The notes: generated by a model from the sequence alone, not told the origin. Shown: positions 30,227 to 62,801, counted from the stretch's first letter. The stretch is 64,000 nt of DNA from Rhodocyclaceae bacterium (GCA_023150275.1 JAKLLG010000002.1:12511-76510), one strand, 5' to 3'. Translations and numbers: made by a program.

Positions 30227-30268
30227 AGTGCCAATCGCATAAAAACAAACCGACTCCGGGGAGGTGTC

Positions 30269-30919: not shown

Positions 30920-30949
30920 CAAAACGAAAACTTACCGAAAGGGAAAGCA

Positions 30950-33631: not shown

Positions 33632-34605
33632 TCGTTCCGCAATACTGGGCCGAAGCCCGCATCCAGGAGCGCCGCGGAAACAGGCAGCTGACCGTGCGCC
33701 GCTTCGGCTGGTCCGAGCATAGCCAGGACGAAGCGCAGGCCAACGCCGAGGCGCGCGTGCGCACCGCGTTCGAGCGTATCGTCTCTGGTGAGAAGCTGCC
33801 CAGACACGAGCCGAAGGTCGCCTACAACGGCGCCGATGGCGTGCCTATCCGCGAAGAAGTACTGGCGCGCCATGGCGATGTCGTGATTACCCGGAATGCC
33901 TACGGCGCGAGTTGCCTCAATACACCGGACGTGCTGTTCGCCGATATCGATTTGCCCGCAACTTCCGCGGCGTCGCGGAAGTTGCTTGTCCATTTTGTCC
34001 TGCCCGGAATGGCGGCAATGGCCGGTTGGCTGACGCATTCGTGGCTTGTCTTTGCGCTGCTCGCCGTGGCGGCAACCGTTTTCGCCGGCACGGTCGCGAA
34101 GCGGCTAGACAGAAATCGCGGGCAACGCATGGAAACCGCCGGGTGTGCGGCCCGCCAGCGTGTCGCAGATTTCGTTGCGGCGCATCCTGACTGGCACGTG
34201 CGGCTCTACCAGACCCCGGCCGGTCTTCGTGCTCTGGTCATGCATCGTACTTTCGATGCCGACGAGCCCGCCGCGCAGGAGTTTTTTCGGGCACTGCACA
34301 GCGATCCGGTCTACGTGCGCATGTGCCGCAACCAGAAATGCTTCCGTGCCCGCGTCAGTCCCAAACCCTGGCGCGTCGGCATGATCCGGCATATCCGGCC
34401 GCGTCCCGGCGTGTGGCCGGTCAGGACCGAGCATCTGGCCCTGCGCCGGGAATGGATTGCCGAGTATGAAAACCGGGCCAGGAGCCACGCTTCCTGCCGC
34501 CTCATTGCAACTCTTGGTTCGCCGACGGTAGACCCCAAGGCGTTCGCCGTACAAACCCTGCATGACGAGTTGAGTCAGGCCGCTTCGTCACTGCCTCTTG
34601 CCTGA
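33628..34605 (+). CDS. hypothetical protein (325 aa, central hydrophobic segment)
   Basis: ATGA-coupled. One or two TM helices (LLVHFVLPGMAAMAGWLTHSWLVFALLAVAATVFAG). No recognisable motif. Confidence 0.5.
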   Translation: MIVPQYWAEARIQERRGNRQLTVRRFGWSEHSQDEAQANAEARVRTAFERIVSGEKLPRHEPKVAYNGADGVPIREEVLARHGDVVITRNAYGASCLNTPDVLFADIDLPATSAASRKLLVHFVLPGMAAMAGWLTHSWLVFALLAVAATVFAGTVAKRLDRNRGQRMETAGCAARQRVADFVAAHPDWHVRLYQTPAGLRALVMHRTFDADEPAAQEFFRALHSDPVYVRMCRNQKCFRARVSPKPWRVGMIRHIRPRPGVWPVRTEHLALRREWIAEYENRARSHASCRLIATLGSPTVDPKAFAVQTLHDELSQAASSLPLA

Positions 34606-34610
34606 ATGCC

Positions 34611-37600
34611 ATGAGCCAAACCGAAAACCCCGATGCCGTAGATGCCGCCGTTGCCGAAGGCGGCAGTTACGAACTGCTGAAAAAGCGCCTGCAGCTGCAG
34701 GGCGATGCGCTGGCCGGAAAGATCAGGCGGCTGAACGAGGATCGTCTGGCCGCGTTCGGCCGTTCCGACCTGCGTCTGCTCAGTCGCTTGCGCGCACGCA
34801 CCGAGAACAACTGTGTGGCGCGCGACATCGTCCGCGTCGGTGATCTGCTGGTCTTCGGCTACAACGTCTTCATGGGGCTGCGTCAGGAGATTCGCGCGGC
34901 CGACGTGTTCAGCCTGTATCGCCTCGGCGAAGGTGCCGGCAGTGAAGAACTGGAGCCGGTTGCGCTGGAAGGCAGTTTTCTCGCCGACCCGCGTTTCACC
35001 CTCGATTTCCGCGAGCTCTACACCTATTACAAGCAGGCCAGCCTGACGCAATTGCGGGTGCATCAGCACAAGCTGCTGGCTGCGTTCCAGATCGGGCCGC
35101 AACTGACCGACCTGCGCGTCTTCCGGTGGTCGATCGAGGCCGATGGCGGCCTCAAGTACATCGACAATCGCGGCGAACGCGACATCGCCCTGCCGGCCGC
35201 GCACGATTTTGAATGGTCGGTGAGCCGGCGCGAAGACCACGTCACCGGCAAGCATCCGCATGTGAATATCCTCGACACCATTTTTGTCGAGACCATCGGC
35301 GGCGATCTCACCGTCAAGATAGAGAACAATACCGAGAGCGGACTCGGCATCTACAGCGAGCCGGTGGAAGACAAGAACCAGTCGCTGGTCGATGCCGAGA
35401 TCTACCACGCCCGCCTGGGTTCGCTGATCCTGCTGCGCATCAAGCCCTACCGCGAAAGCGAATATCGCTACCTGGTCTACAACCACCGTACCCAGCATGT
35501 CGTTCGCATCGATGCCATCGGCCCCTCGTGCGTGCAGTTGCCGGAAGACCACGGCATCATTTTCCCGGGCGGTTACTACCTGCAATCCGGCGAATACAAG
35601 CGCTTCGATCTGCCGGCCGAGGCCATCGCCGGACTGCGCTTCAAGCGCATGCTGCGCTCGCCCAACGGCGAGGATGTGCTCTACGTGTTCTACCAGCCGG
35701 GCGGCGGGCAGTACGGCTTGTTTACCTACAACCTGATCGAAAAACGTCTGGGTACGCCGGTGCTTTCGAATGGCTACGCCCGCTTCGACGACGGCCGCAT
35801 GCTGGTCTTCCAGAGCGACGGCAGCGACCCCGTCCGCCTGCACCCGATGCAGTTGTGGCAAACCCCCTTCGTCAGCGACGACCATGCCGAGCGCCATGTC
35901 GATCGGCAGAGCTTCTTTGGCCGCATCGGCAACGCCGAGCTGGTGCGGGGTATCGCCGAATCGATGGAGATCAGCCGCGCCGTCGGCGAGCAGGCGCCGA
36001 CCCGCGTCGTCTACGAAGATATGCTCCGCCTTTGCGGGCGGGTACTGGACGGCTATTTCTGGCTGGACAGCGACGAGGCCGGCCACGCCGACGCCGATCT
36101 GCGCGCCATCGCCGGCACCGCACGGGCGGCGCTGGACGAGTTCGACAAGGTGGCGGCGATCCGGCGCGAGGCCTCGCGCCTTCTGGCCCAGGCCGAAGGC
36201 GAACAGCACGGCCTGCTGACCGACATCGCCGCCAGGCTCTGGCAACATCCGGACGATTTCGTTGCCATGCTCGACCGCCTGCGCCTGCAGCGCGGCCGCC
36301 TGCTCGGGCTGCGCGAACAGCGCTACATCGACCTTGCCCGAATCGAGGCTCTGGATCAGCAACTCGGCGAGGAGCAGAAGCGGGTCGGCGAAAAGACCCT
36401 TGTCTTCCTGCTCACCGACAAGGCATTCCAGCCCTACCAGGCGGCGCTAGCGGCCTGCGCCACGGCGATCGCCGCCGCCGCCACGACCGGCCAGCTCGAC
36501 GAACAGGGCAAGGGTCTGGAACAGACTGCGCATGCGCTCGACCTGCTCAACGACCTGGTCGCCAACCTGCCCGGCGGCGACGCGACCTCGCGGACCGCCA
36601 TCCTCGAACAGATTTCCGCGGTCTATGCCGAAACCAATCGCCTGCGTGCTGAGGTTCGCAACCGGCGCAAACAACTGGCCACCACCGAACTGGCCTCGGA
36701 ATTCGGCGCCCAGTTCAGGCTGCTCGGGCAGTCGGTGGAAAGCGCGCTGGAGCGCGTCGATACCCCGGAGCAATGCGACGACGCGCTGACCCGGCTGCTC
36801 GCGCAACTGGAAGAACTGGAAGGCCGTTTTGGCGAACAGGAGCAATTCGCCGCCGATCTCGACGAGAAGCGCGAATCGATCTACGAAGCGCTCACTGCGA
36901 AGAAGCAGCAACTGCTGGAAGTCCGTCAGCGCCGTACGCAGATCCTGCTCGATTCCGGTCAGCGCATTCTGGCCGGCGTACCGCGCCGCGTGCAGCAGTT
37001 TACGGTGCTCGACGAAGTCCATGCCTATTTTGCCGGCGACCCTCTGCTCGCCAAATGCCGCAGCATTTGCGACGAACTGCGCGGCATCGGGGCGCAGGTG
37101 CAGGCCGACGATCTCGACACTCGCCTCAAGACCGCCCGCGATCAGGCGCTGCGGGCGGTGCGCGATCGTTCCGAACTGCTCGCCGACGACGGCAACACCA
37201 TCCGCCTCGGCCGTCACGCCTTCACCGTCGGGCGCCAGGCGCTCGAACTGACGCTGGCGCCGAGCGGCGATGGCCTGGCCTACCACCTGACCGGTACCGA
37301 CTACCTGGTGCCCTTCGTGCATGACGAAGCGCAGCGCCTGCAGCCCTATTGGACGATGGCGCTGGTTTCCGAATCGCCGGCCTTCTATCGCGCCGAGTAT
37401 CTGGCCGGGGAAGTGCTGCTGGCGAGCCAGCGCGGCGAAATCGCCGCTTCGTTCGAGGCTCTGCAGGCCTTGTGCCTTGCCGCCGAAGGCGAGCGCGACG
37501 GCTTGCTCGCAGTCGTCCGCGATTTCTCGGCGAGCCGCTATCAGGAGGGCTACCAGAAAGGGGTGCATGACCACGACGCCGCAGCCATTCTCGCCGCACT

Positions 37601-39887
37601 GGTGCCGATGCAGGCGCACGCGGGGCGGCTGGCCTTCAGCCCGCGCGCCCGGGCTCTCGCCGCGCTCTACTGGCTGCAGGGCGTGCCGGCCATCGAGCGG
37701 CCGGGGCTGCAGCGGCAGGCAGCGAGTGCCGGCCAGATCCATGCGTTGTTCGGTGCCGGCCGCGTTCGCGAAGCGCTGGTCGTTCGCTGGCAGCCGGCCA
37801 TTGCCCGCTTTGCCGAGCGGGAGCAATTGCTGGCGCTATGGCAGACGGGTCCGGTGCTGGTCGATGAAGCGGCCGCTTATCTGGCCGAGGAGCTTGCCAG
37901 CGGCGGCGAATGGGTCGCCAGTGGCGCCGCACTGGATCTTGCAGAGGCCTTCACCCGCCATCTCGAACGGGCAAATCACCTGGGACGCTGGCGCGAGCAA
38001 TTGGCCGACTGTGTGCCGCTGGAATGCTGGCAACTGGCCCGCGACTGGGTCGAGAGCTACTGCGCCGCAGCTGCGCCGGAGGCAGCGGCGTGGAGCGACG
38101 AAGCAGCCGCCACCCTGGTGCTGGAATTGCCGCGGCAACGCCACAACGCCGGCTTGAGCGTGACGGTCGGCGGGTTGCGCGGCGAACACCCGCGCGTCGT
38201 CAATGGAGAACTGGCGCTCAATCTCAACGATTTCCATCTGCGGGCGCGTACCCACCGGCAGGAGATCGTTCCCGGGGTTCTGCGCTGGCACGCCTTGCGC
38301 CAGGAACTGGTGGCGAGCGAAAAGGCGCGCCTGAGCCTTGAACAGTTCCAGGCCAAACCGCTCTCCAGTTTCGTGCGCAATCACCTGATCGATGAGGTCT
38401 ATCTGCCGCTGGTCGGCGACAACCTCGCCAAGCAGATCGGTGCCGCCGGCGACAGCAAGCGCACCGACCGCATGGGCATGCTGCTGCTGATTTCGCCGCC
38501 GGGCTATGGCAAGACGACGTTGATGGAATACATCGCCGACCGTCTGGGCCTGATATTCGTGCGCATCAACTGCCCGGCGCTGGGCCACGACGTCGTCTCG
38601 CTCGACCCCGACAAGGCGCCGCACAGCGGCGCCCGGCAGGAACTGGAGAAGCTGAACCTCGGCCTGGCGATGGGCAACAACGTCATGCTGTACCTCGACG
38701 ATATCCAGCACACTCACCCGGAGTTCCTGCAGAAGTTCATCGCGCTGTGCGACGGAACCCGCCGCATCGAGGGCGTCTGGCAGGGGCGGCCTCGCAGCTA
38801 CGATCTGCGCGGCAAGCGCTTTGCGGTGGTGATGGCCGGCAATCCGTATACCGAATCGGGCGAGGCTTTCAGGATTCCCGACATGCTTGCCAACCGCGCC
38901 GACATCTACAACCTCGGCGACGTACTCTCCGGCCGCGAAGCGGCCTTCGCGCTTTCCTACATCGAGAACAGCCTGACCGCCAACCCGGCGCTGATGCCGC
39001 TGGCGACGCGCGATCCCAAGGATATCGACCGTCTGGTCAAGCTGGCACAGGGGCACGACATCCCGGCCAGCGAGTTTGCACACGGCTACAGCGCGGCCGA
39101 ACTGAGCGAGCTGACCGCCATCCTGCAACGCCTGTTCACCGTTCGCGACGTGCTGCTCAAGGTCAACCTCGCCTACATCCAGTCCGCCGCGCAAGAAGAC
39201 GACTACCGTACCGAACCGCCGTTCAAGCTGCAGGGCAGCTATCGCAACATGGCCAAGCTCGCGGCCAAGGTCACCGCGATCATGGATCCGCAGGAGCTGG
39301 ACAACCTGCTGCGCGACCACTACCGCGGCGAAGCGCAGACCCTGACCACCGGCGCCGAGGAGAATCTGCTCAAGCTGGCGATGCTGATCGGCACGCCGAC
39401 GGCCGATGAAACGCGGCGTTGGCAGGCGATCTGCGAGGACTACCGCCGCTTCAAGAAACTCGGCGGCGCCGAGAGCGACGGCGCCACGCGGGTCGCCAAC
39501 CTGCTCGCCGACATCGGGGTGACTCTGGATGGGCTGAGGCAGCAACTTGCGAGTCCTGTACCGGGAACTCCCGATTGGCCTGCGGAGCTAGGGTCGCTAC
39601 GCAACACCATTGCTGCGATCAAACCCCAGGTGACAGTCGATGTCGCCGAGTCGCCGGCAATCGCCGCCATCGTTGACCGCCTGGCAGAGACCTACGAAAA
39701 GGGGATTGCGCCGCTGGTCAATGCGACCTATCACAAACTCAAGCTCGATCATGACATGTGGGAACGTCTGCGCGACATGGCGAAGGACATCAAGCGCCTG
39801 GACGCAGCGCTTGAACAAGCCGATTCACCAAAACCCGCGCCCAAGCCGCGCAAAACCGGAGGCAGCCATGAGCAAGGAAAGTCGTGA
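34611..39887 (+). CDS. 1758-aa multidomain protein with C-terminal AAA+ (AAA_5/MoxR/McrB-like) ATPase domain
   Basis: Walker A LLISPPGYGKTTL (nt ~38490-38520). Walker B NVMLYLDDIQH. Sensor/arginine region VVMAGNPYTESGEAFRIPDMLANRADIY. Precedes these with a beta-rich N-terminal domain and an ~800-aa helical region. Confidence 0.8.
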   Translation: MSQTENPDAVDAAVAEGGSYELLKKRLQLQGDALAGKIRRLNEDRLAAFGRSDLRLLSRLRARTENNCVARDIVRVGDLLVFGYNVFMGLRQEIRAADVFSLYRLGEGAGSEELEPVALEGSFLADPRFTLDFRELYTYYKQASLTQLRVHQHKLLAAFQIGPQLTDLRVFRWSIEADGGLKYIDNRGERDIALPAAHDFEWSVSRREDHVTGKHPHVNILDTIFVETIGGDLTVKIENNTESGLGIYSEPVEDKNQSLVDAEIYHARLGSLILLRIKPYRESEYRYLVYNHRTQHVVRIDAIGPSCVQLPEDHGIIFPGGYYLQSGEYKRFDLPAEAIAGLRFKRMLRSPNGEDVLYVFYQPGGGQYGLFTYNLIEKRLGTPVLSNGYARFDDGRMLVFQSDGSDPVRLHPMQLWQTPFVSDDHAERHVDRQSFFGRIGNAELVRGIAESMEISRAVGEQAPTRVVYEDMLRLCGRVLDGYFWLDSDEAGHADADLRAIAGTARAALDEFDKVAAIRREASRLLAQAEGEQHGLLTDIAARLWQHPDDFVAMLDRLRLQRGRLLGLREQRYIDLARIEALDQQLGEEQKRVGEKTLVFLLTDKAFQPYQAALAACATAIAAAATTGQLDEQGKGLEQTAHALDLLNDLVANLPGGDATSRTAILEQISAVYAETNRLRAEVRNRRKQLATTELASEFGAQFRLLGQSVESALERVDTPEQCDDALTRLLAQLEELEGRFGEQEQFAADLDEKRESIYEALTAKKQQLLEVRQRRTQILLDSGQRILAGVPRRVQQFTVLDEVHAYFAGDPLLAKCRSICDELRGIGAQVQADDLDTRLKTARDQALRAVRDRSELLADDGNTIRLGRHAFTVGRQALELTLAPSGDGLAYHLTGTDYLVPFVHDEAQRLQPYWTMALVSESPAFYRAEYLAGEVLLASQRGEIAASFEALQALCLAAEGERDGLLAVVRDFSASRYQEGYQKGVHDHDAAAILAALVPMQAHAGRLAFSPRARALAALYWLQGVPAIERPGLQRQAASAGQIHALFGAGRVREALVVRWQPAIARFAEREQLLALWQTGPVLVDEAAAYLAEELASGGEWVASGAALDLAEAFTRHLERANHLGRWREQLADCVPLECWQLARDWVESYCAAAAPEAAAWSDEAAATLVLELPRQRHNAGLSVTVGGLRGEHPRVVNGELALNLNDFHLRARTHRQEIVPGVLRWHALRQELVASEKARLSLEQFQAKPLSSFVRNHLIDEVYLPLVGDNLAKQIGAAGDSKRTDRMGMLLLISPPGYGKTTLMEYIADRLGLIFVRINCPALGHDVVSLDPDKAPHSGARQELEKLNLGLAMGNNVMLYLDDIQHTHPEFLQKFIALCDGTRRIEGVWQGRPRSYDLRGKRFAVVMAGNPYTESGEAFRIPDMLANRADIYNLGDVLSGREAAFALSYIENSLTANPALMPLATRDPKDIDRLVKLAQGHDIPASEFAHGYSAAELSELTAILQRLFTVRDVLLKVNLAYIQSAAQEDDYRTEPPFKLQGSYRNMAKLAAKVTAIMDPQELDNLLRDHYRGEAQTLTTGAEENLLKLAMLIGTPTADETRRWQAICEDYRRFKKLGGAESDGATRVANLLADIGVTLDGLRQQLASPVPGTPDWPAELGSLRNTIAAIKPQVTVDVAESPAIAAIVDRLAETYEKGIAPLVNATYHKLKLDHDMWERLRDMAKDIKRLDAALEQADSPKPAPKPRKTGGSHEQGKS

Positions 39888-51823: not shown

Positions 51824-51908
51824 GCCGAGATGGCGGAATCGGTAGACGCAGCGGATTCAAAATCCGCCGCCGAAAGGCGTGAGGGTTCGAGTCCCTCTCT
51901 CGGCACCA
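51824..51908 (+). tRNA. tRNA-Leu (anticodon CAA)
   Basis: Acceptor stem gccgaga/tctcggc. Anticodon loop ttCAAaa. Long variable arm. T-arm gaggg-ttcgagt-ccctc. Discriminator A followed by CCA. Confidence 0.85.
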
Positions 51909-51993
51909 TGGCAGCACGGCAGAAAAAGCGCGCGCAAGTATATCACCCATGCCCATTTCGCCCGGTCCCGCTGCACGCCCCTCTGAAGAATTC

Positions 51994-52899
51994 ATGGAGA
52001 AACCATCTCCCTTGGGCGTCTGGTGGCTTGCCGTGCGCCCCCGCACACTCTCCGTGTCGGTTGCTCCCGTGCTGGTGGGATCGGCGCTCGCCCATGCCGA
52101 GCAGGGCGATTTTCTCCTCTGGCCGGCACTGGTGGCCGCGCTCGCCGCGATGCTGATCCAGATTGGCACCAATCTGCATAACGACGTCGCCGATTTCGAG
52201 CGTGGTGCCGATCCTCCCGACCGCCTCGGGCCACCGCGGGCGACGGCGATGGGCTGGCTGCCGGCACGCACGGTTCGCCGGGCGGCCTGGATTTCCTTTG
52301 CCCTGGCCTTTGCGCTCGGCATCCTGCTCGTCCTGCGCGGCGGCTGGCCGATCGTCGCCGTCGGCCTCGCGTCACTGCTCGCCGGCTGGGCCTATACCAA
52401 CGGACCGCGGCCGATCGCTTACGGCGCGCTGGGCGAGGGTTTCGTGATTTTCTTCTTCGGGGGCGCGGCGGTCGGCGGGAGCTACTACCTGCAGACGCTG
52501 TCCCTGTCGCCGGCAGCGTTGCTCGCTGCCTTGCAGGTCGGTCTGCTCGGCGCGGCGGTGATCAGCGTGAACAACACCCGCGATCTCGCGACCGATGCGC
52601 GCGTGGGCAAGAACACGCTGGCGGTGCGTGTCGGGCGGTGTGTGATGAATCGAATTTACGCAGCGGAGGTGTTGCTGCCGTACCTGCTGCTGCCGTTGCT
52701 CGCGGCGCTTCTTGAGCACAGCGCTGTGTCCGCGTGGTTCTTCGCCTTGCCGTGCGTTTCAGTCGGCTGGGCGCTCTCGCTCTGCAGGCGCTTCCGGACC
52801 CTGCCTGCCGGGCCCGGTTTCAACGATCTGCTTGCCGCCACGGCGCAGCTGCAGGCCGCCTATGCGGCGCTGCTTGCCCTGGCGCTGATCATGGCTTGA
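51994..52899 (+). CDS. UbiA-family prenyltransferase (MenA-like 1,4-dihydroxy-2-naphthoate octaprenyltransferase)
   Basis: NLHNDVADFERGAD matches the N-D-x-x-D-x-x-x-G-x-D prenyltransferase motif. Multi-TM protein. Alternative ATG at 51949. Confidence 0.65.
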   Translation: MEKPSPLGVWWLAVRPRTLSVSVAPVLVGSALAHAEQGDFLLWPALVAALAAMLIQIGTNLHNDVADFERGADPPDRLGPPRATAMGWLPARTVRRAAWISFALAFALGILLVLRGGWPIVAVGLASLLAGWAYTNGPRPIAYGALGEGFVIFFFGGAAVGGSYYLQTLSLSPAALLAALQVGLLGAAVISVNNTRDLATDARVGKNTLAVRVGRCVMNRIYAAEVLLPYLLLPLLAALLEHSAVSAWFFALPCVSVGWALSLCRRFRTLPAGPGFNDLLAATAQLQAAYAALLALALIMA

Positions 52900-53653
52900 A
52901 CCAGGCAAGCTTCGACTGCAGCGTGACGACGGTACCGATGATGATCAGCGCCGGCGGCCGGATGTCGAGCCTGTCGATCTCGCTGGCCAGTGTCGCCAGC
53001 GTCGCGGTGAGCACCCGCTGTCGCCGTGAGGTGCCGTGCTGCACGACGGCGGCCGGGTAATCCTCCGGCAGGCCGTTGTCCATCAACTGTTTGCAGATCT
53101 CTCCGGCGCCGCCGATGCCCATGTAGAAGACGACGGTCTGGTGCGGACGCGAAAGCGCCTTCCAGTCGAGATTGACGCTGCCATCCTTGAGGTGTCCCGT
53201 GGCGAAGACGCAAATCTGCGCGTGGTCACGATGCGTCAGCGGGATGCCGGCGTAGGAGCCGCATCCGGAGGCGGCGGTGACGCCGGGGACAACCTCGAAT
53301 GGCACGCCGTGCTCGGCCAGCGTTTCGATTTCCTCGCCGCCGCGACCGAAGATGAACGGATCGCCGCCCTTCAGGCGCACGACGCGTTTGCCCTGCTTTG
53401 CCAGCCGCACCAGCAGGACGTTGATTTCCTCCTGCGGTAACGCGTGGTTCGATGCCTCCTTGCCGGCATAAATCTTTTCGGCATCCGGGCGCGCAAGATC
53501 GAGCACGCCCTCGGCCCCAAGGTGGTCGTAGACGATGACGTCGGCCTCGCGTACCAGGCGGGCTGCCTTTAGCGTCATCAGTTCGGGGTCGCCGGGGCCG
53601 CTTCCGACAAGATAAACGGTGCCCGGCTGGGTGCTTGCGCGAGGAGGAATCAT
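52889..53653 (-). CDS. cobA: uroporphyrinogen-III C-methyltransferase (SUMT; NirE-like in the nir context)
   Basis: VYLVGSGPGDPELMTLKA and VVRLKGGDPFIFGRGGEE motifs. Divergent from nirS. Confidence 0.85.
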   Translation of the reverse strand: MIPPRASTQPGTVYLVGSGPGDPELMTLKAARLVREADVIVYDHLGAEGVLDLARPDAEKIYAGKEASNHALPQEEINVLLVRLAKQGKRVVRLKGGDPFIFGRGGEEIETLAEHGVPFEVVPGVTAASGCGSYAGIPLTHRDHAQICVFATGHLKDGSVNLDWKALSRPHQTVVFYMGIGGAGEICKQLMDNGLPEDYPAAVVQHGTSRRQRVLTATLATLASEIDRLDIRPPALIIIGTVVTLQSKLAWFKP

Positions 53654-53778
53654 GGAAAAATCTGTGCTGTTGTGAGGTAATGCTGCGTCGCCGGAATGCC
53701 CGGAGGCGCAAGGATATACGGGCCAGTGTGGTTTGTTCAACCGATGGCGAACTTTAGTAATAACCTTGCTCGTAATAG

Positions 53779-53792
53779 TTGATTTGGGTCAA
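53779..53792 (+). promoter_or_regulatory. FNR/DNR/NnrR-type box TTGAT-N4-GTCAA upstream of nirS
   Basis: ttgatttgggtcaa lies ~92 bp upstream of the nirS ATG in the divergent nirE-nirS intergenic region. Confidence 0.6.
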
Positions 53793-53883
53793 AGATCGGC
53801 ATTTCCAAACGGAGCACATTAGCGAGCAGCGTTGAGTCCAGTTACGACCGTTCGCGCCGCTTATCAATAACAGGAGAGGATGT

Positions 53884-55560
53884 ATGAAGAAATTGATTCG
53901 TAACACCCTGATGCTCGCAGCTCTGCCGCTGGCTGTTTCCGCTGCCTTCGCCGCACCGGCCAAGAAGGAAGCCGCTGCTCCGGCGCCGGCTGCTGCCGCA
54001 GGCCCGAGCCTCTCGGCCGAGGACAAGGCTGCTGCTGGCAAGACCTACTTCGAGCGTTGCGCCGGCTGCCACGGCATGCTGCGCAAGGGTGCCACCGGCA
54101 AGAACCTTGAGCCGGCCAACACCGCCAAGCTCGGCACTTCCCGTCTGGAGAAGGTGCTCTCCTACGGTACGGAAGGCGGCATGCCGAACTTCGACGACAT
54201 CCTGTCGAAGAAGGAAATCTCGAACCTGGCCCAGTACCTGCAGATGCCGGCCGAAGCGCCGCCCGAGTATGGCCTGAAGCAGATGAAGGCCGACTGGAAG
54301 CTCCTGATCCCGCAGAAGGATCGTCCGACCAAGAAGATGAACAACATCAACATCGAGAACATCTTCTCGGTGACCCTGCGTGACTCGGGTGAAGTTGCTC
54401 TGATCGACGGCGACACCAAGCAGATCTGGGGCATCGTCAAGACCGGCTACGCTGTTCACATCTCGCGCGTTTCGGCATCCGGCCGCTACATGCACGTCAT
54501 CGGCCGCGACGGTCGCTATGACCTGATCGACATGTGGACCGAGAAGCCGACCACCGTTGCCACGATGAAGTCGGGCTACGAGGCGCGCTCGATCGATACG
54601 TCGAAGTACAAGGGCTATGAGGACAAGTACGCCATCGTCGGCGCCTACTGGCCGCCCCACTACGCAATTCTGGATGGCGAAACGCTTGAGCCGCTGAAGA
54701 TCGTTTCGACCCGTGGCCAGACCGTTGATGGCGAGTACCACCCCGAGCCGCGCGTTGCCTCCATCGTAGCCTCGCACGATAAGCCCGAGTGGGTCGTCAA
54801 CGTCAAGGAAACCGGCATGATTCGCCTGGTTGACTACTCCGACCTCAACAACCTGAAGGAAACGACGCTCAATTCGGCCAAGTTCCTGCACGACGGTGGC
54901 TGGGATTCGTCGAAGCGCTACTTCCTGGTTGCCGCCAACGCCTCGAACAAGATCGCTGTGGCTGACACCAAGACCGGCAAGCTGGCCGCCCTGGTTGATA
55001 CCGCCAAGATCCCGCACCCGGGCCGCGGCGCGAACATCGACCATCCCAAGTACGGCAAGGTCTGGGCGACCTCTCACCTTGGTGCCGACGTGATCACCTT
55101 CATCGGTACCGATCCGGAAGGCAACAAGGACTACGCCTGGAAGGTCGTTCAGACGGTGAAGAACCATGGCGCCAACTCGCTGTTCGTCAAGTCGCATCCG
55201 AAGTCCAAGAACATCTGGGCTGACGCGCCGCTGAACCCGGATCCGAAGCTGGCTGGTTCGGTCACGGTGTACACCATTGCTGACCTCGGCAATCCCGATC
55301 CGAAGCCGGAAGTGATCGACGTTGCCGCGATGGCCAACCTTGGCAAGACCAAGGGCCTGCAGCGCGTGGTGCATGGCGAGTACAACAAGGATGGCGATGA
55401 GATCTGGTTCTCGGTGTGGACCGGCAACAAGACCGAGCCGTCCGCGATCGTTGTTCTCGATGACAAGACGCGCAAGCTGAAGACCGTCATCAAGGACAAG
55501 CGCCTCGTGACGCCGACCGGCAAGTTCAACGTCTACAACACCCAGCACGACGTTTATTGA
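53884..55560 (+). CDS. nirS: cytochrome cd1 nitrite reductase
   Basis: Signal peptide, heme c motif CAGCHG, and a d1 beta-propeller domain. Strong RBS AGGAGAGGA. Lysine-rich codon usage, consistent with high expression. Confidence 0.95.
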   Translation: MKKLIRNTLMLAALPLAVSAAFAAPAKKEAAAPAPAAAAGPSLSAEDKAAAGKTYFERCAGCHGMLRKGATGKNLEPANTAKLGTSRLEKVLSYGTEGGMPNFDDILSKKEISNLAQYLQMPAEAPPEYGLKQMKADWKLLIPQKDRPTKKMNNINIENIFSVTLRDSGEVALIDGDTKQIWGIVKTGYAVHISRVSASGRYMHVIGRDGRYDLIDMWTEKPTTVATMKSGYEARSIDTSKYKGYEDKYAIVGAYWPPHYAILDGETLEPLKIVSTRGQTVDGEYHPEPRVASIVASHDKPEWVVNVKETGMIRLVDYSDLNNLKETTLNSAKFLHDGGWDSSKRYFLVAANASNKIAVADTKTGKLAALVDTAKIPHPGRGANIDHPKYGKVWATSHLGADVITFIGTDPEGNKDYAWKVVQTVKNHGANSLFVKSHPKSKNIWADAPLNPDPKLAGSVTVYTIADLGNPDPKPEVIDVAAMANLGKTKGLQRVVHGEYNKDGDEIWFSVWTGNKTEPSAIVVLDDKTRKLKTVIKDKRLVTPTGKFNVYNTQHDVY

Positions 55561-55592
55561 TCGGCTGAGTTCTGTAGCGTTACTGCAGGGCA

Positions 55593-55624
55593 AAACCGGG
55601 GGCTTCGGCCCCCGGTTTTTTTCT
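55593..55624 (+). terminator. rho-independent terminator after nirS
   Basis: aaaccgggggc-ttcg-gcccccggtttttttct. Confidence 0.8.
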
Positions 55625-55687
55625 GGGAACGCCTTTCCTGTCGTGGCGGTCGAACCGAGACCTTAGTGTTTGTGAAAGGAGCTTGTC

Positions 55688-56002
55688 ATGCGTCGAGTGC
55701 TCGTCGCCATCGCCTTGGCCACTCTTTCGATCAGTGTCGCCAGTGCTGCTGACATCGAGGTGCGTATCGAGAAAATGAAGTTCGTGCCGGACGAGACAAG
55801 GATCAAGAAAGGCGACTCCATCGTTTGGAAAAGCCATGAGAAGCGCGGCTACCATACGGTTTGGTTCAAGGACGAGGGTTATCCGGAATCGGAGCCGATG
55901 TTTCCCGACGAAAGCTGGAAAAGGAAGTTCGACAAGCCTGGCACCTACGTCTATATCTGCGGCCCGCACCCCGAGATGGTTGGTCGCGTGATCGTTGAAT
56001 GA
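55688..56002 (+). CDS. amicyanin-like cupredoxin (type 1 blue copper protein)
   Basis: Signal peptide. GDSIVWKSHEKRGYHTVWF (first His ligand) and YICGPHPEMVGRVIV (Cys-x-x-His-x-x-Met copper site, as in amicyanin CTPHPFM). Confidence 0.75.
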   Translation: MRRVLVAIALATLSISVASAADIEVRIEKMKFVPDETRIKKGDSIVWKSHEKRGYHTVWFKDEGYPESEPMFPDESWKRKFDKPGTYVYICGPHPEMVGRVIVE

Positions 56003-56010
56003 GGGATTGA

Positions 56011-56337
56011 ATGCCTTATCGTTTTTTTCTTGCCGTGACCCTGTTTGCCTCATCTGCCGTCGCTGCTGCGTCCGAGCCTCCGCCCGAGCGCCAGCGCGAA
56101 CTGGTGCGCATGGTGCGTCAGGACTGCGGTTCCTGCCACGGCATGACGCTCAACGGCGGTCTCGGCCCGGCGCTGACTGCAAGCGCGCTGAAAGAGCGCG
56201 GCATGCCCCACGAGGTGCTGGTCGCCACTATTGTCGGCGGCCGCCCGGGTACCCCGATGCCACCCTGGCATCGTTTCTTGAGCGAACCTGAAGCCGAATG
56301 GATCGTGGATAAGCTGATCGAAGGGTTCCCGGAATAG
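56011..56337 (+). CDS. nirC: cytochrome c55X (NirC-like mono-heme c-type cytochrome)
   Basis: Signal peptide. CGSCHG heme-binding motif. 108 aa. Sits in the position of nirC. Confidence 0.8.
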   Translation: MPYRFFLAVTLFASSAVAAASEPPPERQRELVRMVRQDCGSCHGMTLNGGLGPALTASALKERGMPHEVLVATIVGGRPGTPMPPWHRFLSEPEAEWIVDKLIEGFPE

Positions 56338-56355: not shown

Positions 56356-58704
56356 TCAGAAGCTGATGTTCAAGCCAACGTTCAACGAGCGCGCACGGCC
56401 TGGAACGCTCATGCCCCATGGGATGCCGTTGATCGTCATCGAATTGCCCTGGCCTACGTACGCACCGCCGAGTGGCAGGTAGTACATGACATTCATGGCG
56501 TTTTCGAGCGCGAGGTCGAGACGCAGGTTCTTCCATTCATAGCTGCTACGGAGATTCAGCAGGGTGTAATCCGGTGTTTTGACTTCGTTGCGTACGCGCG
56601 AAACATAGGTTTTGTCATCCACGTATTGCACTTCCGCCGTGTTGGTCCATCCACCCAGACGGTGGACGAGGGCGAGCTTCGTGTTCCTCGGCATCATGTG
56701 GTAGAGGTTGTCGCCAGTCGTCCGGTTCTTGCCACGAACGTAGCTGAACATTGCAGCGCCGGTGAAACTTCCCACTCCCTCCATGCTGCCAAGCAGGCGT
56801 TCCGCGGAAAGATCCAAGCCGTATAGCCGCGCCGTCTGATTGATGTACTGCAGTTTTACATAGCGGTCCGTCGTCGTTACGTTGCTCGCGGTGCACTGCG
56901 TATTCATTCCCGGCGTGCAGCGCTGTGCGTCGATATACTGCTTCACGTGCGTTACGTATCCGGTCAGCTTGAAATTCCATTCCTTTCTTTCGTTGTCATG
57001 CCAGTCTGCACCCACGCTTGCCGTATGCGCGATTTCCGGTTTGAGATTGACATTGCCAATGTATGCGTTGCCGTCCCCGACAAAATTGTTCATCAGCGCC
57101 GTCATCGTCGAGTAGGTCCACGTGTAGCGTTCGTAAAGATTGGGTGACCGCGTTTTGCGCGCGAGACCGATTTCGTAAGTTTCCATCGCACTTGGCGTAA
57201 AGCGGGCAAGGGCGGTCGCGTCCAAGTGACGGTCATCGTGTTTGCGATCGCTGGCGTTGAAGGCGCGGGCATCACCCAGGTAGCTGTTGCTGTAGCCCTG
57301 GACCGTTCCTGCTTCCGACACCACCTTGCCACCGCGAACGCCGAGCAGCGTGAGCCATTGCTTGCTCCACTGTGTTTCCAACTCGGCAAATATTCCGTAG
57401 CGATTCCGTGTGCCGTTGCGGATGTTCCAGAACGGCTTGCAGCACATCGAGACGCCAGCGTTGATCGGCGGCCACCAATCGTCAAGGCGATATTTCTGGA
57501 AATCTAATCCGATGCGCAGCAAATCCGCCTCGCCGAGCGCGATGCTCCCTTTCAGCAAGCCGCCGTCCGTCGTGGCATCGGCGTCCATCGGCATCATCAT
57601 TCCGTCGTAGCGCTCGGGGAGATAGTCCATATGGTGGCGGAGCGATTGATGGAAGTACTGGGTTTCAAGTTCTCCCCACTCGAACTGACCGGTATAGCGA
57701 AGCGTCTTGATTCGGTTGACGTTTGACGGCTCGCTCTTGTCTACCTCGAAGGCCAGGGGATCAGACGGATCGGGCGCAGAGCTGTGCACCATGTCCATGC
57801 GCTGGTTCGGAAATCCCTCGAAGTCGATTTTCTGCTCGCCAAGCTTCACCTCGACAAGGTGATTGCCTCCCAGGCGCAGCGCCAGTGAACCTTCCCGGTT
57901 CAGCGAACCGCCGTACTCCGTTGCAGCAACTTCGTTTGCAGCGACCAAATGCCCGCCACTTTGTTTGCTCCATGGTCCGGGGAGCTTGAAATCGGACGCT
58001 GCGCGGTAATTCTCAGAGCGCGATATCGACTGCGAGTAAGAGAAATTGATCCATACGCCAGCCAGAGTGGCGCCAAAATTGGTCCCGCGGCCGTTGCCGT
58101 TGCTCCGCATGAATCCGCCGAGTTGTCCTTCCAGCAGGGGGTCTTCGCCTGCCTTTGCGAACTTCGGCGGTGCCGAACGTACCTGAATCGTGCTCCCGAT
58201 GCTGTCCCCGCCGACACTCACCGGCGTTATTCCGGCGAACACCTCGATGCTTGCGATCTTGCTTGGATCGACGAAGGATAGCGCCGGGTTCATGTGATTC
58301 GGACAGGCCGTCATCAGATCCATGCCATCAATGGTGGTGCGCAGGCGATCATCGGCCAGTCCGCGAATCACCGGCAGGCTGGAAATTCCTCCCGCACCGT
58401 AGGTGCTGGCGCCGGGAATGTCTTCCAGCAAGCGTGCGCTGTCACTCGTGTTCGTCCGCTGCGATTTGAGGGTGCGCAGATCCAGACGAGCGCCGCCGGC
58501 AGGGGTGTCGACAAGGCGAGAGTCTTCAATTTCGATTTCTGTCAGCGTGGTGCTATCGTCGGCTCCAGATGCGGATTGCGCCAGCACCGGTACTGGCAGG
58601 ATGGCGATAAGGCTCGCCAGCAGCCTGTGTCGAAATCGTGAGTTCAAGATCGTTCTCTTGTGAACGCGAAAAGGGCGGCAGTGGCCTTCGCCTCCGCCGC
58701 CCAT
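56356..58704 (-). CDS. TonB-dependent outer-membrane receptor
   Basis: Terminal Phe (…NVGLNISF). Plug and barrel motifs. Start uncertain. ATG 58704 has an SD; TTG 58647 would give MNSRFRHRLLASLIAILPVPVLA-QS; track ATG is at 59007. Confidence 0.8.
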   Translation of the reverse strand: MGGGGEGHCRPFRVHKRTILNSRFRHRLLASLIAILPVPVLAQSASGADDSTTLTEIEIEDSRLVDTPAGGARLDLRTLKSQRTNTSDSARLLEDIPGASTYGAGGISSLPVIRGLADDRLRTTIDGMDLMTACPNHMNPALSFVDPSKIASIEVFAGITPVSVGGDSIGSTIQVRSAPPKFAKAGEDPLLEGQLGGFMRSNGNGRGTNFGATLAGVWINFSYSQSISRSENYRAASDFKLPGPWSKQSGGHLVAANEVAATEYGGSLNREGSLALRLGGNHLVEVKLGEQKIDFEGFPNQRMDMVHSSAPDPSDPLAFEVDKSEPSNVNRIKTLRYTGQFEWGELETQYFHQSLRHHMDYLPERYDGMMMPMDADATTDGGLLKGSIALGEADLLRIGLDFQKYRLDDWWPPINAGVSMCCKPFWNIRNGTRNRYGIFAELETQWSKQWLTLLGVRGGKVVSEAGTVQGYSNSYLGDARAFNASDRKHDDRHLDATALARFTPSAMETYEIGLARKTRSPNLYERYTWTYSTMTALMNNFVGDGNAYIGNVNLKPEIAHTASVGADWHDNERKEWNFKLTGYVTHVKQYIDAQRCTPGMNTQCTASNVTTTDRYVKLQYINQTARLYGLDLSAERLLGSMEGVGSFTGAAMFSYVRGKNRTTGDNLYHMMPRNTKLALVHRLGGWTNTAEVQYVDDKTYVSRVRNEVKTPDYTLLNLRSSYEWKNLRLDLALENAMNVMYYLPLGGAYVGQGNSMTINGIPWGMSVPGRARSLNVGLNISF

Positions 58705-58739: not shown

Positions 58740-59525
58740 CTACTGGATTTTCCGGCGCCGACGCGCGACAGAACCCATCAATCCCAGGCCGGCCAGAAGC
58801 ATGGCGTAGGTTTCCGGCTCCGGAACTGCCGCAACCTGCGCGGTGATCACCTGCGAGAGCGGGTAACCGCTCATCGTGCCCGCCGCGCCATAGACATGCT
58901 GCGACGTTGCCGTCATGCAGACGGCGCCCATCATTCCGCCGGGGGCGCAATCGGCGTAGGCGGTCGACGCGAGACCGCGACTGCCGCTTCCCAATGCCTC
59001 GTTCCACGAGAGCGCCAGAGGATTGCTGGCGTTATTGGCGGCGCTCAGGTTGTCCGGAACGAAGATCAGCGCGTAGGAGTTCTGAATGGAGGCCGGATAG
59101 TTCTTCATCTTCGGGCCGCCGGCAAAAATGCCGCCGTTATCAATGCCGTCAGCCGGTGTCCATGTGTCGCCGAGGAACGTGGCCGTGCTCGGCTTGGCAA
59201 AGGTTGCCGCGAAAGTGCCGTGCAACGCGCTGTCGTACCACGACACGAGCTGATAGGTCAGCGATACCAGCGTTTGATCATAGTACGGAGCCGTGCCGCC
59301 GGCGGGCCAGGTGCCGGTCATCGACTCGGTCAGAGAGCCTTGCAGACCGGTGATTGTGTGCGTCACATCGTCGTAGCTGAACGAGCCGGTGAATATCGTA
59401 TTCTTTGGTTGCGTGTCAGGTTCGAACCAGGTCGTGATCACATCGTAGTTGCTGACCCCGGCGTGAGCCGCTGGGGCGCCGGCAAGCAGAGCCAGTGCGG
59501 CCAAGGCTGTTGCTGTTTTGTTCAT
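58740..59525 (-). CDS. PEP-CTERM sorting-domain secreted protein
   Basis: Signal peptide. C-terminal VPEPETYAMLLAGLGLMGSVARRRRK. Confidence 0.8.
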   Translation of the reverse strand: MNKTATALAALALLAGAPAAHAGVSNYDVITTWFEPDTQPKNTIFTGSFSYDDVTHTITGLQGSLTESMTGTWPAGGTAPYYDQTLVSLTYQLVSWYDSALHGTFAATFAKPSTATFLGDTWTPADGIDNGGIFAGGPKMKNYPASIQNSYALIFVPDNLSAANNASNPLALSWNEALGSGSRGLASTAYADCAPGGMMGAVCMTATSQHVYGAAGTMSGYPLSQVITAQVAAVPEPETYAMLLAGLGLMGSVARRRRKIQ

Positions 59526-59560
59526 GGCAGGTGTTCTCCGGTTGGTGATTCAGATTCCGT

Positions 59561-60412
59561 TCAGGACTGGCGACGGCGACGGGCAACCGTGCCCATTAGT
59601 CCGAGGCCGGCGAGCAGCATGGCGTAGGTTTCGGGTTCCGGAACCGGTGCTGCCCAGGTCCAGGTTTCGATCGTGTTCTTGCCAGCGGCGGCGGCCACTT
59701 CGTTGCCGTAGATGTCGCCGATATAGACGTTGTATGTGGCGGAGAAGGTCTTTCCCCAGCCATTCGTGGCGTTCAGATCCACGGCATAGATGTTGTGATC
59801 CATCATGTAGTCCCACTGCCATTTCGTGGAACTTCCCGCGGTGCCGAAGAGCCCGGTATATCCGCCAGCCAAAGGATCGACGGTCGTGGTGTTGTTGGCG
59901 TTCACGCCGTACTTGCCGACGGCCTTGTAGGTTTCCAGGCCAGCGCTCTGCGACAGCACTTCGATCCAGATGCTTGCACCGGCACCGTAAGTGGTCTCGA
60001 TCGAGGACTTCAGCGTTGCGGGTGCCGTACCCGAGCCGCCCCACCAGCCGAACTCCCGACTGAACGCCTTGTTCTGCAGCACCGCCCAGGGTTGCGAGGG
60101 GTCCCACTGAGCGAACGTCGTTGCCGCCAGATTCGGGTTGCCAGTGCTCAATACGCCAAGGGTCAGCGGTAGCGGGTTGGACGAGAAACAGCCCGAGCTC
60201 CAGCCAGGGCAGCGCGGGGTGAAGGTGTCCTGATTCGGCATCTGCAACGCGCCGTTCGCGTCGAGAGAAATCTGGGACATGACCATCGGCATCCAGGTCG
60301 GCGGGTTGGTGTCGTACGCGCTGGCAACGCCGGCATGGCCTGCCAGCGCAAGTGCTACGGCTGACGCAGCGAGCGAGGGTCGCAGGTGTGTGTTGATGAA
60401 CGAATGATTCAT
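59561..60412 (-). CDS. PEP-CTERM sorting-domain secreted protein (paralog)
   Basis: Signal peptide MNHSFINTHLRPSLAASAVALALAGHAGVASA. C-terminal VPEPETYAMLLAGLGLMGTVARRRRQS. Confidence 0.8.
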   Translation of the reverse strand: MNHSFINTHLRPSLAASAVALALAGHAGVASAYDTNPPTWMPMVMSQISLDANGALQMPNQDTFTPRCPGWSSGCFSSNPLPLTLGVLSTGNPNLAATTFAQWDPSQPWAVLQNKAFSREFGWWGGSGTAPATLKSSIETTYGAGASIWIEVLSQSAGLETYKAVGKYGVNANNTTTVDPLAGGYTGLFGTAGSSTKWQWDYMMDHNIYAVDLNATNGWGKTFSATYNVYIGDIYGNEVAAAAGKNTIETWTWAAPVPEPETYAMLLAGLGLMGTVARRRRQS

Positions 60413-60736
60413 GAGCTTGCTCCGACGATGTGATGGTGATCCTGTGGGCGCGAAATGAGCGAGTGTCTGTACCGGGTGGCTGGTTACCAGGCGCGCAATT
60501 TCGTGCATGAACGGTGGCGGAAGTTACGCGCGTTGCGAGCGTCGTGGAATGGTTCATTTGTCCCATTTTTGGGTTCCGGACACGCGCTGCGGCGATATGT
60601 CGCATGGATTCCGGCGGGTGTGCGGCAGATAATTCGCGCCGACGCAGCATGTGTCGGGCGACGAACTTTCCATTCCGGAATGCCCCTCGTTTCAACGCCC
60701 CGATCTCATCGTTGCAGCCCCGATAAAGTTATCCGA

Positions 60737-61638: not shown

Positions 61639-62142
61639 ATGTCGTTGTCGCCGATGACCCGTATTCTGCTGTTAATTCTCCTCGTGTTCGCGGTGCCTTC
61701 CGCGCGTTCGGAACATGCAGCCTCTTCAAGTCCGCGCGCATTTGTCCCCGGCTCGTACCAGAAGATCCTTGCCGACCATCGTGGAAAGCCGTTCATTCTC
61801 AGCTTCTGGTCGGTTTCCTGCACGCACTGCCCGGCTGAATTGCGCGCGCTCGCTGAACTGAAGCGGCGTTTCCCCCGGCTCGAACTCGTGGTGGTGGCAA
61901 CCGATTCACCCGAGGAAGGCGCCGAGGCAGCACGCATGGCGCGCGAGTACGGGCTGGCATCGGTGCCGCAGTGGATCTTCGCATCGGAAATGCCGGAGCG
62001 CTTGCGCTTCGAAATCGATCGTGGCTGGTATGGCGAATTGCCGCGTACCTATTTCTTCGATCGAAACCACAAGGTCGAGGCCGTGTCCGGCCTGGTTCCG
62101 GAAGCGCGGCTGCAGCGCTGGGCGCAGGAGCAACTGCGATGA
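61639..62142 (+). CDS. TlpA-like thiol:disulfide oxidoreductase (thioredoxin fold, CxxC)
   Basis: Signal peptide. FWSVSCTHCPAEL redoxin motif. Confidence 0.75.
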   Translation: MSLSPMTRILLLILLVFAVPSARSEHAASSSPRAFVPGSYQKILADHRGKPFILSFWSVSCTHCPAELRALAELKRRFPRLELVVVATDSPEEGAEAARMAREYGLASVPQWIFASEMPERLRFEIDRGWYGELPRTYFFDRNHKVEAVSGLVPEARLQRWAQEQLR

Positions 62143-62801
62143 CGGAAGCCGCTACGCATTTCTATGCGCCCGTCGAAATGCCCGAGACGAGCGGCGCGCG
62201 TCGCACGCTCTCGTTAGTCGGTATCGCGCTACTGCACGTCGCACTCATCGCGCTGATCGGTATTGCTGCAACGCGCCCTGAAATACAGGAGCCTGTCCGC
62301 GCGCTTGCCGTCCGTCTGCTCGAAACCACGCCGCCCGCCCCGCCCAGTATCGAGCCGCCGAAACCGCTGCCACAACAGGCTGCGCCAAAGAAAGTGCTGA
62401 AGCCGCCGCCGGTGCTCGCGGCCAATCGCTCTACCGACGCGCCTGCCGCATTCGCTGTTGCGCCGCAGCCTGAACCGGTCGCCGCGCAGGTCGTCCTGGC
62501 CCCCGCGCCTGTGCCGGTCACCGCTGCCCGCTTCGACGCCGACTACCTGCAGAATCCGAAGCCCGTTTACCCGCCGATGTCCCGCCGGCTCAACGAGGAA
62601 GGCAAGGTCATCCTGCGCGTGAAGGTCAGCCGTGACGGTCACCCGCTGGCTGTCGAGATCAAGCAGTCGAGCGGCTACCCTCGACTCGACGAGGCGGCGA
62701 GGAACGCCGTCGAACGCTGGCGCTTCGTGCCGGCCCGGCAGGGCGATCAGGCGATCGAAGCCGCGGTGCTGGTGCCGCTGAATTTCACATTGAACAGTTG
62801 A
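62139..62801 (+). CDS. tonB: energy transducer TonB
   Basis: ATGA overlap. Pro-rich spacer (PPAPPSIEPPKPLP) and a C-terminal TonB domain (YPPMSRRLNEEGKVILRVKVSRDGHP). Confidence 0.85.
   Translation: MTEAATHFYAPVEMPETSGARRTLSLVGIALLHVALIALIGIAATRPEIQEPVRALAVRLLETTPPAPPSIEPPKPLPQQAAPKKVLKPPPVLAANRSTDAPAAFAVAPQPEPVAAQVVLAPAPVPVTAARFDADYLQNPKPVYPPMSRRLNEEGKVILRVKVSRDGHPLAVEIKQSSGYPRLDEAARNAVERWRFVPARQGDQAIEAAVLVPLNFTLNS

Follow-up and report, generated by a model that had tools for sequence, protein, structure and literature searches.

What carries electrons to cytochrome cd1 nitrite reductase (NirS) in bacteria that encode a small copper protein at the place where Pseudomonas encodes cytochrome c551? 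The question is raised by a stretch of DNA from a Rhodocyclaceae bacterium (GCA_023150275.1 JAKLLG010000002.1:12511-76510), whose whole 64,000 nucleotides (nt) we call the window and whose positions 53654-56337 are the subject of this study. Electron delivery to cd1 has been worked out mainly in Pseudomonas, with cytochrome c551 (NirM), and in Paracoccus, with cytochrome c550 and pseudoazurin. An earlier note on this DNA had read in it the order nirS-cupredoxin-nirC and had suggested that the cupredoxin, as a blue copper protein, donates electrons to NirS alongside cytochrome c55X, the product of nirC; Pfam and PDB matches find all of these elements where the note had placed them. We consider it probable that the cupredoxin is a soluble periplasmic blue copper carrier, from a subfamily dedicated to cd1 nitrite reductase, that feeds NirS. 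A donor is favoured because a signal peptide, a complete type-1 copper site and a small soluble cupredoxin fold come together in a nirS neighbourhood. The argument turns on the following elements.

53884-55560, plus strand: nirS, cytochrome cd1 nitrite reductase, 558 amino acids (Pfam and PDB homology).
55676-55681, plus strand: Shine-Dalgarno sequence AAGGAG, 6 nt 5' of the cupredoxin ATG (direct reading).
55688-56002, plus strand: nir-linked cupredoxin, predicted to be of type-1 copper, 104-amino-acid precursor (Pfam, PDB, AlphaFold2 and synteny).
56011-56337, plus strand: nirC, cytochrome c55X, 108 amino acids, with the haem site CGSCH (match to PDB 6tp9).

The product of nirS has the parts of a cd1 enzyme, namely a signal peptide, a haem c domain with a CAGCH site of the CxxCH type, and a d1 beta-propeller. 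It matches Pfam Cytochrom_D1 (E 9e-143) as well as Cytochrome_CBB3, and the solved cd1 structures of P. aeruginosa and Paracoccus (PDB 1nir and 1qks families) with E values of about 1e-207 to 1e-201, the best being 2e-207. NirC carries a single CxxCH motif and matches the P. aeruginosa cytochrome c55X (PDB 6tp9) at E 6e-28 over residues 22-105; its ATG begins 8 nt past the stop codon of the cupredoxin gene.

The protein encoded between them is by sequence a type-1 copper protein of amicyanin-like architecture, in a subfamily distinct from those already named, and is presumably loaded with copper. Its predicted signal peptide ends at VASA, before AD, which leaves a mature protein of 84 amino acids; the AAAGGA ahead of the gene is kept in an alignment of its relatives. 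It matches the profiles PF00127 Copper-bind (46.4 bits against a cut-off of 21.2, E 5.6e-12) and PF13473 Cupredoxin_1 (32.5 against 27), and its best sequence relatives in PDB are amicyanins (E 6e-12). When aligned with these, the protein places His56, Cys91, His94 and Met97 at the positions of the amicyanin copper ligands. The full ligand set is therefore present, with the motif C91-G-P-H94-P-E-M97, which is the Cys-x-x-His-x-x-Met site that the earlier note had picked out. The short C-x2-H-x2-M loop (CGPHPEM) has the same length as that of amicyanin (CTPHPFM). All four ligands are invariant in 83 of 83 relatives, which indicates purifying selection. The AlphaFold2 model, built with 20 homologues, has seven strands in a Greek-key beta-sandwich and a mean pLDDT (predicted local distance difference test) of 90, low confidence being confined to the first 20 residues, a hydrophobic helix resembling a Sec signal peptide. 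Foldseek places amicyanin 1id2 nearest to the model (template modelling score, TM, 0.74; 39% identity), followed by plastocyanins; the top amicyanin and plastocyanin matches have TM 0.70-0.76 and probability 1.00.

The description of the protein as amicyanin-like, also from the earlier note, holds for its architecture and its complete type-1 site and stops there. The NCBIfam equivalog model of amicyanin (TIGR02657) gives 54.4 bits against a cut-off of 110.2, and the neighbouring genes are nir, not mau, so the protein is not an amicyanin proper. We also rejected plastocyanin (TIGR02656, 40 bits against 87.85) and pseudoazurin (TIGR02375, 21.1 bits against 109.85; 84 mature amino acids against about 124). 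The 104-amino-acid open reading frame (ORF) has no CxxCH motif and so falls outside the NirM/c551 class. Predicted isoelectric points are 8.9 for mature NirS, 6.4 for the cupredoxin and 5.6 for NirC; the complementary charges of NirS and cupredoxin are only suggestive of a partnership.

Is the arrangement a peculiarity of this genome? It is real and it is widespread, the mark of a conserved family. A protein search returned 83 relatives, mainly metagenomic, among which the named ones come from Azospira restricta, Ferribacterium limneticum, and Rhodocyclaceae and Nitrosomonadales metagenome-assembled genomes (MAGs); the databases give them only generic names ('plastocyanin/azurin family', 'cupredoxin domain-containing'). 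A further scan, limited to one genome for each species, turned up relatives in at least 274 species genomes. The synteny counts below are taken from the best 80 of these loci, searched by tblastn with nir proteins, and the denominators are the loci with enough flanking sequence. These 80 come from Rhodocyclales (Dechloromonas, Azonexus, Ferribacterium, Azospira, Sulfuritalea, Aromatoleum, Candidatus (Ca.) Proximibacter), Nitrosomonadales (Thiobacillus, Gallionella, Sulfuricellaceae), Burkholderiales (Rhodoferax, Simplicispira) and a few Gamma- and Alphaproteobacteria, and many derive from wastewater, groundwater and sediment metagenomes.

nirS at most 4 kb upstream of the cupredoxin gene: 65 of 69 loci.
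Gene for an EB_dh-domain haem protein directly upstream of the cupredoxin gene: 64 of 76 loci.
nirC directly downstream of the cupredoxin gene: 63 of 75 loci.
nirF downstream of the cupredoxin gene, in the order nirF-nirDL-nirG-nirH: 53 of 67 loci.
No nir gene near the cupredoxin gene: 3 of 80 loci, a nir context being found in 77 of 80.

In loci where nirC and nirF are no longer beside it, the cupredoxin gene keeps its place with nirS-(nirT)-EB_dh (for example L065, L074, L077, L081, L085). Two of these loci, L065 (a Burkholderiales MAG) and L085 (Simplicispira sedimenti), have an unusual form of their own, nirS-nirT-EB_dh-cupredoxin-nirS2, with two full-length nirS paralogues and no adjoining nirC. 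Another oddity is found in Dechloromonas agitata DSM 13637 (L071, 4294-9107), in which nirE...EB_dh-cupredoxin-nirC-nirF is intact and about 4.8 kb of other DNA lies in the place of the missing nirS. This species has been reported as unable to denitrify, and the loss of nirS may be related to that. Broader searches were less telling. An exhaustive profile search of 1.84 billion representative proteins gave 34,020 matches at E <=0.001 and is uninformative on the family because proteins with 3-12 tandem cupredoxin repeats outrank the single-domain members by summed score; it tells only that the cupredoxin superfamily is large. A plasmid collection yielded distant homologues only (at most 46% identity).

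The loci fall into three architectures: 1) nirS-nirT-EB_dh-cupredoxin-nirC-nirF-nirDL-nirG-nirH, in Thiobacillus, Sulfuritalea, Gallionella and others, where nirT (in 23 loci) encodes a NapC/NirT tetrahaem protein with four CxxCH motifs; 2) the same without nirT, in Dechloromonas, Azonexus and Ferribacterium; and 3) nirS-cupredoxin-nirC alone, in the window and its nearest relatives, including Azospira restricta. The order of the first is that of the full P. stutzeri operon, which we take to be nirSTBMCFDLGH, with EB_dh and cupredoxin in place of nirB and nirM, and hence the cupredoxin sits in the nirM slot. In the window as in its relatives, the gene lies between nirS (or nirT/EB_dh) and nirC. 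A nirS-nirT-nirB transcript, and NirM as the usual donor, have been described (PMC8954225). The earlier claim that a canonical nirS-nirM-nirC order had been replaced is thus right about the slot and too broad about the canon, since that order is canonical for Pseudomonas only and not for all nirS denitrifiers. With the P. aeruginosa c551 sequence as query (checked against PDB 351c), tblastn found no cytochrome c551 (NirM) homologue in the 64-kb window; within 10 kb of the cupredoxin gene among the related loci searched there was one clear c551 (L074, 8 kb away) and one weak match (L084), and no others.

In a neighbour-joining tree rooted on amicyanin, the window-type sequences form one derived clade inside the family, with the signature R-G-Y-H-T-V-W round the first His ligand against R-T-S-H-S-V/I-x in the rest. 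This clade without EB_dh covers no fewer than 10 species, and their cupredoxins share 63-80% identity with that of the window. By these comparisons the window is a member of a derived clade from which nirT and EB_dh have been lost. Searches by tblastn agree with the earlier note that nirFDLGHJ are not in the window: genes for nirF, nirDL, nirG, nirH, nirJ, nirT and EB_dh were not found in its 64 kb, where the NirF and NirN queries match only the paralogue nirS (NirN also matches nirC weakly). In the window's clade nirFDLGH have moved elsewhere while nirS-cupredoxin-nirC was kept together, and we take NirS as the partner because the cupredoxin stays with it when the d1-biosynthesis genes leave. 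The residues specific to the clade beside the first His ligand would be consistent with a switch to another electron-transfer partner.

The relatives offer a view of what might lie upstream of the carrier. Distant homologues (41-46% identity) lie next to nirS on plasmids of Ruegeria sp. THAF33 (L089) and Azospirillum brasilense Sp7 (p4, L088), and in both a NapC/NirT tetrahaem domain is fused to EB_dh in one protein (L088 5217-6839, L089 5014-6798), encoded between nirS and the cupredoxin homologue. Through these fusions a respiratory quinol dehydrogenase is tied to the EB_dh protein and, by adjacency, to the cupredoxin. The suggestion of an electron donor to cd1 has therefore gained from the embedding in nirS clusters and from the frequent presence of NirT and EB_dh genes upstream, the role being read from the anatomy of the protein and from synteny. 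One could go further and see here an undescribed, copper-dependent and bc1-independent branch to cd1, quinol to NirT to EB_dh to cupredoxin to NirS, widespread in Beta- and some Alphaproteobacteria, of which the window's clade keeps only the cupredoxin, re-tuned round its copper site for another donor. We hold this larger scheme only tentatively and would not yet lean towards it.

How would the cupredoxin gene be expressed? Two elements bear on this.

53779-53792, palindromic, no strand assigned: FNR/DNR/NNR-type box TTGATTTGGGTCAA between nirE and nirS, 91 nt upstream of the nirS ATG (centre 98.5 nt upstream).
55592-55622, plus strand: intrinsic-terminator-like hairpin AAAACCGGGGGC-TTCG-GCCCCCGGTTTT, followed by more T (7 T in all), from reading and folding.

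The box had been reported in the earlier note, and it stands: TTGATTTGGGTCAA is the sole TTGAT-N4-GTCAA site in the 64 kb, where 0.05 would be expected by chance, and a TTGA[TC]-N4-[AG]TCAA box precedes nirS in 58 of 67 related loci, starting 65-123 nt (mostly about 100 nt) upstream of the approximate nirS start. By comparison across loci, a functional FNR/DNR/NNR-type site is well supported. No second FNR-type box was found ahead of the cupredoxin gene, even with one mismatch to the FNR consensus, and there was no Crp/FNR-family gene among the part of the window's ORFs that were scanned. Between nirS and the cupredoxin gene, the hairpin folds at -29.1 kcal/mol (z = -4.6). A consensus promoter and terminator scanner gave nothing useful in this spacer, the hairpin being missed because its stem extends into the T run. 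It is kept in 8 related loci with compensatory stem changes from G-C to A-T (GGGGGC/GCCCCC against GGGAGC/GCTCCC). Given this conserved hairpin, control of the cupredoxin gene by the nirS box needs read-through. About 20 nt past the hairpin a TATAAT is found in 7 of 8 relatives and is missing in the window and in L014, which suggests lineage-specific differences in the expression of cupredoxin-nirC. In the window these two genes are most likely expressed by read-through, below the level of nirS, and the lower third-position G+C content (GC3) of both small genes (0.71, against 0.82 for nirS) would fit a lower expression.

Put together, the mechanism that we favour would run as follows. Transcription would start at an FNR/DNR-dependent promoter upstream of nirS, and partial read-through of the hairpin would reach cupredoxin-nirC, giving less carrier than reductase. 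The cupredoxin would be exported by its signal peptide, bind one copper through His56, Cys91, His94 and Met97, cycle between Cu(I) and Cu(II), and hand electrons one at a time to NirS at its haem c domain. It would thereby do the job of c551 (NirM) in Pseudomonas and of pseudoazurin in Paracoccus, probably in parallel to NirC. In most relatives the carrier would be fed by the NirT tetrahaem quinol dehydrogenase and/or the EB_dh haem protein encoded just upstream. Since NirT and EB_dh were lost in the window's clade, the cupredoxin would there presumably be reduced by the bc1 complex, which is the simplest option, or by another periplasmic donor. What the analysis shows are the identities of the genes, the copper ligand set, the fold, the conserved synteny and box, and the hairpin; export, copper loading, redox partners and transcript structure are what we infer from these.

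A number of observations weigh against the role of the cupredoxin as a donor to NirS. First, the absence of nirT and EB_dh from the window's clade leaves its cupredoxin without the upstream donors of the relatives. Second, with a strong hairpin after nirS and no TATAAT in the window, expression of the cupredoxin could be low, and the GC3 difference from nirS points the same way. Third, the gene is tightly linked to nirC, the role of which may lie in haem d1 maturation, and synteny alone thus does not single out NirS. Fourth, three relatives, in an S. stutzeri strain, P. fluvialis and a Nitrosomonadales MAG, are orphans away from nir genes.

These orphan copies speak for the rival that survives best, in which the cupredoxin is a general periplasmic shuttle of denitrification that serves NorBC and/or NosZ equally and lies among nir genes for co-regulation only. 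Pseudoazurin in Paracoccus has been reported to serve several denitrification reductases, and the same cluster in Azospira restricta has a nosZ-type gene about 7 kb further downstream. This was, however, the sole nos gene encountered, no nor or nos queries having been made, while the linkage is specific to nirS (65 of 69 loci) and the slot occupied is that of the NirS-specific donor NirM. A general shuttle is compatible with all observations and overlaps with the model that we favour; as an alternative to a dedicated donor we consider it unlikely.

The tie to nirC supports another rival, that the cupredoxin is a redox partner acting with NirC in haem d1 maturation, at NirN (dihydro-haem d1 dehydrogenase) or at another late step. 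The paper on the 6tp9 deposition reportedly describes NirC as associated with haem d1 biosynthesis. The two genes adjoin in 63 of 75 loci and nirF-nirDL-nirG-nirH then follow in 53 of 67; the window's NirC is 70% identical to the small cytochrome ahead of nirF-nirDL-nirG-nirH in Ferribacterium, and the haem d1 gene nirE is the divergent neighbour of nirS in the window. A role of NirC as donor is on record too: according to a citation of Hasegawa 2001 in PMC5658584, it gives electrons to NirS in vitro. Against a part in maturation, the window's clade keeps nirS-cupredoxin-nirC although nirFDLGH moved away, and several loci have nirS-nirT-EB_dh-cupredoxin with no nirC or nirF near, two of them (L065, L085) flanked by two nirS genes. 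Moreover, NirT is a respiratory quinol dehydrogenase, unneeded for biosynthesis, and it is NirT::EB_dh fusions that adjoin the cupredoxin. We therefore give this explanation little credence.

Scarcely credible is that the cupredoxin of the window's lineage is a decaying or silent remnant, left by the loss of its partners nirT/EB_dh and cut off from the nirS promoter by the terminator, since the strong hairpin, the absence of any recognisable promoter from the 62 bp upstream of the gene, the missing TATAAT of the relatives and the GC3 below that of nirS are set against an intact frame, a strong Shine-Dalgarno sequence, the four ligands and the family's signature residues all kept, an EB_dh-less clade of at least 10 species at 63-80% identity that points to selection, and identical copies on 9 independent metagenome contigs.

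If the cupredoxin is a dedicated carrier to NirS, how new would it be? Cupredoxin donors to cd1 are already established, in the case of pseudoazurin, and of azurin in vitro. In the searchable full-text literature, which leaves subscription journals outside, we found no description of an operon-encoded amicyanin-like cupredoxin in the nirM position, nor of its coupling to NirT/EB_dh, and the family is probably an undescribed dedicated carrier for nitrite reduction. The nearest reports are of Chloroflexi NirS ORFs with N-terminal cupredoxin domains (PMC8756737). A paper on T. denitrificans lists Tbd_0076, by its number next to nirS (Tbd_0077), as a c-type cytochrome and leaves the cupredoxin unmentioned. 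A dedicated copper carrier would name the donor in the carriers among Dechloromonas, Azonexus, Azospira, Ca. Proximibacter, Thiobacillus, Sulfuritalea and relatives of Gallionella, and would add an amicyanin-like subfamily with a defined partner to those available for electron-transfer studies. Nitrite reduction of the nirS type would then be copper-dependent, so that the line usually drawn between iron-type nirS and copper-type nirK would blur, with a bearing on the build-up of nitrite and nitric oxide under copper limitation. Were the larger scheme of a separate branch to cd1 true, a need for copper in nitrite reduction would extend to many 'iron-type' denitrifiers with nirS in wastewater and aquifers (Dechloromonas, Azonexus, Thiobacillus, Sulfuritalea, Gallionellaceae). 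The NirT::EB_dh fusions provide a testable path from the quinol pool.

The region around the cupredoxin gene comprises five genes, encoding a menA-like UbiA protein, a nirE/cobA-type enzyme, NirS, the 104-amino-acid ORF and the 108-amino-acid c-type cytochrome. The two on the far side of the box are as follows.

51949-52899, plus strand: menA-like UbiA prenyltransferase (dihydroxynaphthoate polyprenyltransferase), abutting nirE.
52889-53653, minus strand: nirE/cobA-type uroporphyrinogen-III C-methyltransferase, 254 amino acids, divergent from nirS.

The nirE product, the enzyme of the first step towards haem d1, matches Pfam TP_methylase (E 7e-57) and, with 305.8 bits over a cut-off of 198, the NCBIfam model of uroporphyrinogen-III C-methyltransferase. 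Translation probably starts from an ATG at 53653, the start taken from the gene call on an identical metagenome contig (L001), and 53654 is the first base of the 230-bp divergent nirE-nirS intergenic region. The menA-like gene keeps its position beside nirE in all close Rhodocyclaceae relatives (L005, L008-L014), and a menaquinone-type prenyltransferase beside nir genes in a betaproteobacterium is an unexplained pairing. A tRNA-Leu(CAA) gene lies between queA and the menA-like gene (51824-51908, plus strand). Azospira restricta has the whole tgt-queA-menA-nirE neighbourhood in common with the window. Horizontal transfer as the origin of the cluster is unlikely because the queA-nirE-nirS neighbourhood is common to Azospira, and queA lies a few kb from nirE in Dechloromonas and Azonexus.

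On the other side, a gene for a TonB-dependent receptor (56356-58704, minus strand) converges on nirC; its similarity to haem and copper receptor families is weak and below cut-off, and any connection with the supply of haem or copper is speculative. Downstream of its nirC, Azospira restricta likewise carries ExbBD and a TonB-dependent receptor, the latter without a tblastn match to that of the window. Downstream of the window's receptor gene are two adjacent genes for proteins with PEP-CTERM sorting signals (261 and 315 amino acids; 58740-60508, minus strand), and a protein with a TonB C-terminal domain is encoded at 61971-62801 (plus strand). Far from the nir genes, the window has a c-di-GMP-I-GGC (cyclic di-GMP) riboswitch at 25873-25970 (minus strand; Rfam RF03167, score 59.4 bits, gathering threshold 59), which lies upstream of a small ORF for a membrane-anchored product (25362-25772, minus strand), and a cluster at 29016-39887 that encodes PspA/IM30, a 700-amino-acid SPFH/Band-7 protein and a 1758-amino-acid ORF with DUF3686 ('ATPase involved in DNA repair'), DUF7902 and AAA domains.

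How does this system compare with the known ones? Pseudoazurin (PazS) of Paracoccus is a periplasmic type-1 copper donor to cd1 in vivo, beside a c-type cytochrome, under anaerobic, FNR-family control, and its gene lies outside the nir cluster. The cupredoxin described here resembles PazS of Paracoccus denitrificans and P. pantotrophus as a small type-1 copper protein proposed to serve cd1. It belongs, however, to another subfamily, with a shorter ligand loop (C-x2-H-x2-M) and without the C-terminal helices of the pseudoazurins of about 124 amino acids, and genes of its type lie nearly always between nirS and nirC. Anaerobic expression of pseudoazurin has been noted (PMC12848317). With amicyanin (MauC) of Paracoccus and methylotrophs our protein shares the short C-x-P-H-P-x-M loop, a similar size and four aligned ligands, whereas the gene clusters differ, nir for the cupredoxin and mau (methylamine dehydrogenase) for amicyanin. 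Differences are also found near the ligands, where the cupredoxin has R-G-Y-H and P-E-M and amicyanin M-P-H and P-F-M. These positions, ahead of the first His and within the loop, make up the hydrophobic patch by which amicyanin docks its partner. Azurin of Pseudomonas aeruginosa is another cupredoxin that reduces cd1 in vitro; its gene is unlinked to nir and it has been reported as dispensable for denitrification in vivo. It represents yet another subfamily, with a fifth axial ligand and a longer loop, and no azurin-specific model or structure was among the NCBIfam and PDB matches of our protein.

NirM (cytochrome c551) of Pseudomonas aeruginosa and P. stutzeri has the same slot directly upstream of nirC and is likewise presumed to supply the NirS haem c domain with single electrons, with an unrelated fold and cofactor, haem c instead of a copper cupredoxin. 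In P. stutzeri the proposed route runs from NirT to NirB to NirS (PMC8954225). Compared with this chain, the window lacks nirT and EB_dh, whereas relatives encode NirT just after nirS and then two soluble carriers, an EB_dh-type haem protein and the cupredoxin in place of the dihaem NirB and c551, an arrangement which suggests a branch from quinol to NirS.

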